From Escherichia coli (GTDB lineage Bacteria > Pseudomonadota > Gammaproteobacteria > Enterobacterales > Enterobacteriaceae), in the NCBI RefSeq assembly GCF_044324785.1, contig NZ_CP172127.1: a DNA stretch of 64,000 nucleotides. One strand, written 5' to 3'. Each line of letters begins with the position of its first letter. The first letter of the stretch is position 1. The notes beneath the pieces were generated by a model. That model did not search any database, was not told where the DNA came from, and saw only the letters and a program-made list of their open reading frames with translations. A program made the translations under genes and the position numbers. This document shows positions 36,797 through 37,962 of the stretch, one piece after another.

Positions 36797-37962
36797 GCGA
36801 GATGAGTTATCTGGAAAAATTGCTGGATGGAGTTAAGGTTGAGTGGAAAACACTAGGGAAAGTGCTTAAACGAACTAAAGGCACAAAAATAACCGCTGGG
36901 CAGATGAAAGCTCTTCACAAAGATAATGCGCCGCTTAAAATTTTTGCAGGAGGAAAAACAGTAGCCTTTGTTGACTTTAAAGATATACCAGAGAAAGATA
37001 TTAATAGAGAGCCATCGATTATTGTTAAATCCAGAGGTATTATCGAATTCGAGTATTACGATAAACCATTCTCTCACAAAAATGAGATGTGGTCATATCA
37101 CTCAAATAATGATGCGATAAGCATAAAGTATATTTATTACTTCCTAAAAATAAATGAAGGATATTTCCAGAAAATTGGGGGTAAAATGCAAATGCCACAA
37201 ATTGCAACTCCTGATACAGATAAGTTTGAAGTTCCAATCCCTTGCCCGGATAATCCGGAAAAATCCCTTGCCATCCAGTCTGAAATCGTTCGGATTCTGG
37301 ACAAATTTACTACACTTACCGCTGAGCTTACCGCTGAGCTTACCGCTGAGCTTAACATGCGTAAAAAACAGTACAATTACTATCGCGACCAGTTGTTGAG
37401 TTTTAAAGAGGGTGAGGTTGAGTGGAAGACTTTGGGGGAAGTGGCTCAGTTTAAGCGAGGAACGGCAATTACCCAAAAACAGACAACACCAGGTGAAATA
37501 CCAGTAGTTGCCAATGGACCAATTCCTACTTATTTTCATAGCGAGAGCAACAGACAAGGTGAAACAATCGTTATAGCCAGATCTGGTGCCTATGCAGGAT
37601 ATGTCAGTTTCTGGAATCAGCCAATATTTTTAACCGATGCCTTTAGTGTTCATTCCGACTTAAAAATTGTAAAACCAAAGTTTATTTACCACGTGCTACA
37701 AAATAAACAAGAGCACATCCATGCAATGAAAAAAGGTGCGGGTGTGCCTCATGTCCGAGTTAAAGAGTTTGAAACCTATGATATACCTATACCTCCTATC
37801 ACCGAACAAGAGCGTATTGTTTCTATACTCGATAAATTCGACACCCTGACCAACTCCATCACCGAAGGTCTTCCGCGTGAAATCGAGTTGCGCCAGAAAC
37901 AATACGAGTACTATCGTGATTTACTGTTCAGTTTCCCAAAACCTGAAACTCTCAGTAATTAA
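36793..37962 (+). CDS. hsdS: Type I specificity subunit, type IC
   Basis: 389 aa; two variable target-recognition regions separated by a conserved central region with [12 protein letters not shown], and conserved C-terminus ([22 protein letters not shown]). Confidence 0.92.
37318..37353 (+). repeat. 3 x 12-bp in-frame tandem repeat (acc gct gag ctt = TAEL) in the hsdS central region
   Basis: Three perfect head-to-tail copies read directly from the sequence. Confidence 0.95.

Follow-up and report, generated by a model that had tools for sequence, protein, structure and literature searches.

The dependence of spacer length in a type I restriction target on the number of short repeats in the specificity subunit has been in textbooks since 1989. 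In the EcoR124 family, EcoR124I and EcoR124II, whose HsdS subunits carry two and three copies of the tetrapeptide TAEL, recognize GAA N6 RTCG and GAA N7 RTCG, respectively (Loenen et al., PMC3874165). Hybrids of EcoR124 and EcoDXXI (EcoDR2/DR3 and EcoRD2/RD3) behaved as predicted, with an N6 spacer at two units and an N7 spacer at three; EcoDXXI and EcoprrI have three units, which is regarded as the apparent optimum, and changes in unit number are ascribed to unequal crossing-over (PMC3874165). Tandem tetra-amino-acid repeats in the HsdS central region are a hallmark of type IC systems (PMC10030836). An EcoR124I variant was made by removing one of the three TAEL-coding units from EcoR124II hsdS in order to alter specificity (PMC10644984), and in natural isolates of Neisseria gonorrhoeae the methylome motif shifts with the number of LEAT repeats, combined with a downstream frameshift (PMC6789123). 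Here, we describe the repeat tract in the hsdS gene of a chromosomal type IC locus of Escherichia coli, contained in a 64,000-nucleotide stretch of contig NZ_CP172127.1 (assembly GCF_044324785.1; the whole stretch is referred to below as the window). We consider it very likely that the tract is a spacer-length module that has recently gained one unit over a common allele, P0134, that the predicted target has a gap one base longer, and that such changes are recurrent but rare.

A sequence-only reading of the window had reported three perfect TAEL-coding copies in the central region of hsdS, and this proved exact. In the raw sequence, three perfect copies of ACCGCTGAGCTT occupy positions 37318-37329, 37330-37341, and 37342-37353, and Tandem Repeats Finder (TRF) returns an array at 37315-37354 with a period of 12, 3.3 copies, 100% matches, and 0 indels. 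Three further periodic bases (CTT) precede the three units and one follows them, which yields a 40-bp perfect tract. The repeat is in frame with the open reading frame (ORF) at 36793-37962 on the plus strand (37318 - 36793 = 525, or 175 codons). The features concerned are as follows.

36793-37962, plus strand: hsdS, specificity subunit, 389 aa (ORF list, translation, and match to EcoR124 HsdS)
37318-37353, plus strand: proposed spacer-length module, three 12-bp units ACCGCTGAGCTT encoding TAEL x3, HsdS residues 176-187
37315-37354, plus strand: full periodic tract, 40 bp, 3.3 copies of CTTACCGCTGAG (TRF)

The array is no chance product: at equal base frequencies, the expected number of occurrences in the window of 28 matches in a row at a lag of 12 is 64000 x 4^-28, or ~1e-12. 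It is also the sole array with 100% identity among the three found by TRF in the 64 kb. The remaining two are located at 7122-7180 (27-bp unit, 2.2 copies, 78% matches) and 61337-61365 (14-bp unit, 2.1 copies, 93% matches). All three TAEL units are encoded by the same codons, out of 4 x 4 x 2 x 6 = 192 possible synonymous encodings, which argues for recent duplication rather than convergence at the protein level.

The exact 389-aa HsdS of the window was absent, by exact-sequence look-up, from a collection of ~15 billion proteins that includes JGI, ENA, Logan, and NCBI. The best match, P0134 (385 aa, E. coli, 145 contigs), has two units; its alignment to the window protein shows identity at 385 of 385 positions and a four-residue gap, equal to exactly one TAEL. 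The P0134-type two-unit allele is carried by contigs L005-L007. Over 21 kb, the window differs from L005, a P0134 contig (GCA_020389665.1), by two single-nucleotide polymorphisms (SNPs), one 1-bp indel, and the 12-bp unit, while over 13.7 kb the 12-bp unit is the only difference from L007. Two units are likewise present in all nearest alleles (P0134, P0135, P0140, P0143, and P0145), the closest of which are 97-99% identical. With surroundings that hardly differ and two units in every one of the closest alleles, the three-unit state is most parsimoniously explained as a recent gain of one unit in the lineage of this strain. What is new here is an allele that, as judged from these alignments, is the common allele P0134 plus exactly one unit, and whose three-unit protein is not in the collection, together with the three other locus pairs and the sample of unit numbers described below.

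The same data could be produced by an assembly or sequencing artefact in a strain that truly carries the two-unit P0134: the three-unit protein is unique among the ~15 billion, and all else in the surrounding 13.7-21 kb matches two-unit strains. We find this barely credible, since a 40-bp tract is far below any read length and contains no homopolymer, the insertion is exactly one in-frame unit, and like differences are independently present in complete RefSeq genomes. Across 11.5 kb, 12 bp are the only difference between loci L001 (Ecol_AZ146, CP018991, three units) and L002 (P24_WM1_05.20, CP085056, two units). The HsdS proteins of these two loci share their pair of target recognition domains (TRDs) with the window HsdS, to which they are 91% identical. 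L010 (Esc26, three units) and L011 (51243816-SK1A, two units) differ by 12 bp and one SNP, and L004 (E. coli 1303, three units) and L009 (ETEC1717, five units) by 24 bp and one SNP. The five-unit array lies in an IS3-truncated hsdS with the TRD2 of the window (L009, NZ_CP122876.1, 1372-2253), and a four-unit array was seen in an intact plasmid hsdS (L008, pANT_2, 1093-2259).

The distribution of unit numbers was assessed in 59 E. coli records, sampled as evenly spaced BLAST rows spanning the region; units were deduced from length differences, and outliers were verified in sequence. The length classes for two, three, four, and five units contained ~31, 21, 1, and 1 records, respectively, and arrays of more than three units were rare in the sampled records. 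A search with the 73-aa central region returned mainly gene fragments and was unsuitable for a copy-number census, and the unit counts among the 120 best full-length protein matches were not used as frequencies, because representatives of 90% clusters merge two- and three-unit alleles. Units are uniform within a locus, being either all ACCGCTGAGCTT or all ACAGCAGAGCTT, and where a GAA marker sits in the first unit, expansion is confined to later units. Such homogenization within loci, together with expansion of later units, is the mark expected of units gained and lost repeatedly. Among operons annotated as intact, the TRD pair of the window is accompanied by two units in six complete E. coli genomes and by three units in four, and a K. 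variicola plasmid also has three; both states look viable with this combination of TRDs.

How often does the tract change? A fast contingency locus, in which the 12-bp copy number varies often within a culture and a clone always contains both N and N+1 specificities, perhaps accompanied by epigenetic, phasevarion-like effects, would agree with the polymorphism of unit number across E. coli (two, three, four, and five), and with the existence of four locus pairs that differ in units while having 0-2 SNPs in 2-21 kb. With so few SNPs between the members of a pair, the per-locus rate of unit change appears comparable to the summed substitution rate of many kb. This possibility has been raised for repeats adjoining an hsdS TAEL tract (PMC7383803). 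For the window locus, we nevertheless regard it as quite unlikely. Three 12-bp units (a 40-bp tract) are far below the length of classical phase-variable tracts, and in place of the long, fast-varying tract of hsdS genes whose phase variation depends on simple sequence repeats (SSRs), a two-unit sibling allele is found that is constant on 145 contigs, with the three-unit form a singleton and no other copy-number version deposited; these are consensus assemblies, which are blind to minority variants and so are no strict test. Constructed one-, four-, and five-unit versions of the window allele, as well as three-unit versions of P0140 and P0145, were all absent from the collection.

The broader proposition, that the TAEL tract of chromosomal E. 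coli type IC systems is a true contingency locus, with each clone steadily yielding N-1 and N+1 variants, we hold to be unlikely. If it were true, such variants would survive via restriction alleviation and there would be standing diversity of restriction barriers and N6-methyladenine (m6A) patterns within populations; the window strain would represent a variant of this kind, sampled once it had become fixed, and the four near-isogenic pairs would provide natural material for studying how a one-base change of a type I target rewires gene flow and, possibly, gene expression. The reading that we prefer is slower: unit changes look recurrent across E. coli loci but rare within a lineage, and do not resemble high-frequency phase variation. 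The expectation of the sequence-only reading that the locus can switch by one unit is thus supported by four near-identical natural locus pairs, but the locus is better described as one that has switched, rarely.

The neighbors of hsdS, its gene order, and the predicted structure of its product are those of the EcoR124 family. In the order hsdM-hsdS-hsdR, all three genes are on the plus strand, intact, and full-length, and the ATG of hsdS overlaps the stop codon of hsdM (ATGA), as in translationally coupled genes.

35240-36796, plus strand: hsdM, methyltransferase subunit, 518 aa (TIGR00497 hsdM, E = 1e-195, profile positions 1-515 of 515)
37963-38083, no strand: hsdS-hsdR intergenic gap, 121 bp, between the hsdS stop (37962) and the hsdR ATG (38084)
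38084-41200, plus strand: hsdR, restriction/translocase subunit, 1038 aa (TIGR00348 hsdR, E = 2e-226)

Type I families are delimited by how similar and how interchangeable their subunits are. HsdM matches EcoR124 HsdM (7bst_D) with 1153 bits over residues 1-518, compared to only 66 bits for EcoKI M, and HsdR matches EcoR124 HsdR (2w00_A) with 2253 bits over residues 1-1038. The best Protein Data Bank (PDB) match of HsdS is EcoR124 HsdS, 7bst_A (phmmer, E = 9e-86). In the phmmer alignment, residues 1-20, ~146-216, and ~334-389 are near-identical to EcoR124 HsdS, while the TRDs are divergent; the sole gap in the central region corresponds to one TAEL unit, the PDB sequence carrying two. Gene order with the hsdM-hsdS overlap, HsdM and HsdR similarity, conserved HsdS regions, and TAEL repeats together identify the locus, at the level of sequence, as a bona fide type IC (EcoR124-family) restriction system, as the sequence-only reading had it. 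The parts of HsdS are arranged as follows.

36850-37227, plus strand: TRD1, N-terminal target recognition domain, ~residues 20-145 (conservation to 7bst_A only outside it; approximate boundaries)
37228-37440, plus strand: central conserved region, ~residues 146-216 (near-identity to the EcoR124 central region)
37441-37791, plus strand: TRD2, C-terminal target recognition domain, ~residues 217-333 (approximate boundaries)
37792-37959, plus strand: distal conserved region with the second long helix, residues 336-378 (alignment to 7bst_A and AlphaFold model)

TRD1 is nearly invariant among relatives sharing the TRD pair of the window, and E. coli 1303 and ETEC1717 combine the same TRD2 with different TRD1s. 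An AlphaFold model of HsdS has a mean predicted local distance difference test score (pLDDT) of 85.5, and its top Foldseek matches are solved HsdS structures, EcoR124 among them. DSSP assigns a continuous predicted helix to residues 155-201 (37255-37395) of the model, with TAEL residues 176-187 in the middle, and the second long helix spans residues 336-378. In the central helix, the blocks ILDKFxTL and RxKQYxYYRD, which are conserved, are separated by (TAEL)n followed by NM, i.e., 14 residues at n = 3; in the translation, the stretch of the distal helix between its conserved blocks is likewise 14 residues long. At three units, the two helices would therefore have the same length, in keeping with the remark on an optimum (PMC3874165).

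These features suggest how the extra unit may act. It is established for the family that the central and distal helices form an antiparallel coiled coil, which keeps the two TRDs apart, and that each four-residue unit adds about one turn to the central helix. With the third unit, one TRD of the window HsdS would then be shifted and rotated with respect to its partner, a movement of roughly one base-pair step. For both the M2S methyltransferase and the R2M2S endonuclease, the half-sites would stay the same and lie one bp further apart, with 8 rather than 7 nt between the methylated adenines. The unit itself may have been gained through misalignment of the 12-bp direct repeats, by either replication slippage or unequal crossing-over, the two being indistinguishable from sequence. 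A one-unit misalignment leaves only 28 bp of out-of-register homology (40 minus 12), and RecA-independent slippage is at least as plausible as unequal crossing-over. As a consequence, the half-sites of P0134 would be kept and the gap lengthened by one base, and the window strain and its two-unit relatives would restrict each other's DNA.

The extra unit might, alternatively, have no clean +1 effect in this TRD pair, and instead relax specificity or inactivate the enzyme, so that the system is crippled or promiscuous. How the coiled coil absorbs a register change in a single helix is described as unclear (PMC3874165), and the occurrence of five units in an IS3-truncated hsdS is consistent with long arrays being tolerated only in a dead gene. 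With four units, Gubler and Bickle (1991) are reported to have obtained relaxed spacing. Three units, however, are the state of EcoR124II, EcoDXXI, and EcoprrI, the apparent optimum, at which the central and distal helices are equal (14 residues each); four complete E. coli genomes and the Klebsiella plasmid have this TRD pair with three units in an operon annotated as intact, and hsdM and hsdR of the window are full-length. We therefore judge a crippled or promiscuous enzyme to be very improbable, and continue with a clean lengthening of the gap by one base.

The sequence-only reading had cited N6 versus N7 for two versus three copies in the EcoR124 family, with unequal crossing-over as the source of the change, which agrees with the literature (PMC3874165), and had deduced an N7 target for the window. 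The quantity that underlies the rule is the separation of methylated bases: two units place them 7 nt apart, and three units 8 nt (EcoSal Plus review, PMC12707154); the EcoR124I-delta target, GAA N7 TTC, has a separation of 7, and that of EcoDXXI-delta, TCA N8 TGA, a separation of 8 (PMC12707154). At equal unit number, the gap as written varies with the half-site, as can be seen from GAA N6 RTCG versus GAA N7 TTC, and from TCA N7 RTTC versus TCA N8 TGA (PMC12707154; Table 2 of PMC3874165). For the three units of the window, the predicted separation of the methylated adenines is 8 nt, and the gap should exceed that of the two-unit sibling by one base. The "N7" of the earlier deduction is too specific, being dependent on half-sites. 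Assignment of half-sites was attempted for TRD1 and TRD2, and no characterized relative was identified for either; PDB relatives of TRD2 are M. genitalium MG438 and a V. vulnificus methyltransferase.

A group of proteins that share TRD1 came to light in the comparison with the window (36793-37959). P0136-P0148 (e.g., P0141, 415 aa), found in Escherichia and Klebsiella on up to 40 contigs, have the TRD1 of the window at both the N- and the C-terminal position, and their TAEL units number two. This looks like the outcome of a TRD having been duplicated or replaced in nature. Symmetric derivatives of EcoR124I and EcoDXXI have been engineered with a similar arrangement, and by analogy with them, a palindromic target would be expected.

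Several points weigh against the proposal as a whole. The written gap (N6, N7, or N8) depends on the half-sites and is not fixed by unit number, and the change of specificity proposed for the window strain is carried over from other TRD pairs. Gain rather than loss is argued solely from parsimony and allele frequency. The AlphaFold model shows that the tract is predicted to be helical, and gives no measure of a change in domain spacing. Stability speaks against frequent switching, P0134 being unchanged on its 145 contigs, with no versions of other unit number in the collection. Finally, an artefact is formally possible from an assembly alone, although a clean 12-bp in-frame unit within a tract of 40 bp is not typical of one.

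In the 121-bp gap between hsdS and hsdR, whose length had been given correctly by the sequence-only reading, the ORF list contains neither prrC nor a prrC-sized ORF, in line with the absence of a prrC-like insert asserted there. A 121-bp gap is likewise present in L004, L005, and L008-L011. A simple sigma-70 consensus scan of the gap for a separate hsdR promoter gave 0 hits, and hits over the whole region were no more numerous than in shuffles. PrrC is encoded between hsdS and hsdR in L001-L003, relatives with the TRD pair of the window (PADLOC, E = 5e-133 for L001 and E = 1e-146 for L003; the L002 gene shares the protein accession of L001).

L001, 7162-8406: PrrC gene
L002, 7150-8394: PrrC gene
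L003, 7160-8359: PrrC gene

The presence of PrrC in these relatives and its absence from the window imply that the same S specificity circulates with and without PrrC.

The window is a segment of the E. coli chromosome whose flanks are 97.5-97.7% identical to many strains. The type IC operon is located inside a dense island of defence and toxin-antitoxin genes, at ~28659-48400, whose other members include the following.

28659-29309 and 29389-30318: ORFs matching ScoMcrA-like genes of L005
30381-31757: ORF matching a gene of L005, a near-identical contig, that is annotated as McrC-family (PF10117)
31688-33742: McrB-like gene
34100-34933, minus strand: DUF4942 gene
41620-42567: AbiEii
42560-43024: AbiEi
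43973-46001: ORFs matching CbtA/CbeA, RadC, and DUF932 genes of L005

A tRNA-Leu right after hsdR marks the end of the same site in E. coli 1303; no tRNA genes were found anywhere in the 64-kb window. Compared with L006, the window has 24 SNPs clustered in ~340 bp of the DUF4942 gene (34469-34811), in an otherwise nearly identical 21 kb. A second DUF4942 paralogue lies downstream in related contigs (L005, 16221-17054), so that the cluster may stem from gene conversion between paralogues or from recombination over a short segment. At 47060, a 1-bp indel relative to L005 affects the ORF at 46237-47091, which encodes 284 aa in the window, L006, and L007, and 317 aa in L005. The indel was considered as a sign of poor assembly, and this was ruled out, as L006 and L007 do not differ from the window there and have the same 284-aa form; on this comparison of contigs, it is a strain polymorphism.

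If the predicted target is correct, the window strain and its many two-unit relatives would be mutually incompatible in type I methylation despite near-identical defence islands, which bears on gene flow, phage host range, and transformation barriers within this E. coli lineage. The window and GCA_020389665.1, as well as CP018991 and CP085056, constitute natural pairs for comparing the spacer rule on an uncharacterized TRD pair. There are also implications for annotation: clustering of S subunits at 90% identity merges alleles that are expected to differ in specificity, and similarity-based transfer of recognition sequences misses one-unit differences and would result in a wrong gap.

The interpretation given here is established biology, and the window is a fresh natural example of it, with no new mechanism. 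Among known systems, hsdS genes with SSR-dependent phase variation (Atack et al. 2020, PMC7383803) resemble the window in having a tract within the gene whose length could change specificity; their tracts are long runs of short units that vary at high frequency and mostly cause frameshifts, whereas the window has three in-frame 12-bp units. NgoAV of N. gonorrhoeae (LEAT/EATL) is, like the window system, of type IC, with a tetra-amino-acid repeat in the HsdS central region that varies among isolates (PMC6789123). It differs in repeat sequence and TRDs, and in NgoAV a homopolymer frameshift that truncates HsdS also contributes, while the window hsdS is full length. EcoDXXI and EcoprrI (N7 gaps) share three TAEL units in the central conserved region; EcoprrI has prrC between hsdS and hsdR, where the window has only the 121-bp gap.

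The closest likeness is to EcoR124I and EcoR124II, which have the same hsdM-hsdS-hsdR order, end-to-end matches of HsdM and HsdR, and near-identical conserved regions of HsdS. EcoR124II also shares the 12-bp TAEL-coding unit, as mutagenesis primers quoted in PMC10644984 contain accgctgagctt; the codon before the repeat reads Thr-Leu (TTL) in the window and Ala-Leu (TAL) in EcoR124. Both TRDs differ from those of EcoR124, and the half-sites of the window are thus not GAA and RTCG. EcoR124 is plasmid-borne (R124 and R124/3), while the window locus is chromosomal and lies in a defence island. As in the EcoR124I/II pair, alleles with the same TRDs that differ only in unit number were found (the window versus P0134 in L005-L007), so that the window allele stands to P0134 in the same three-versus-two relationship as EcoR124II to EcoR124I.

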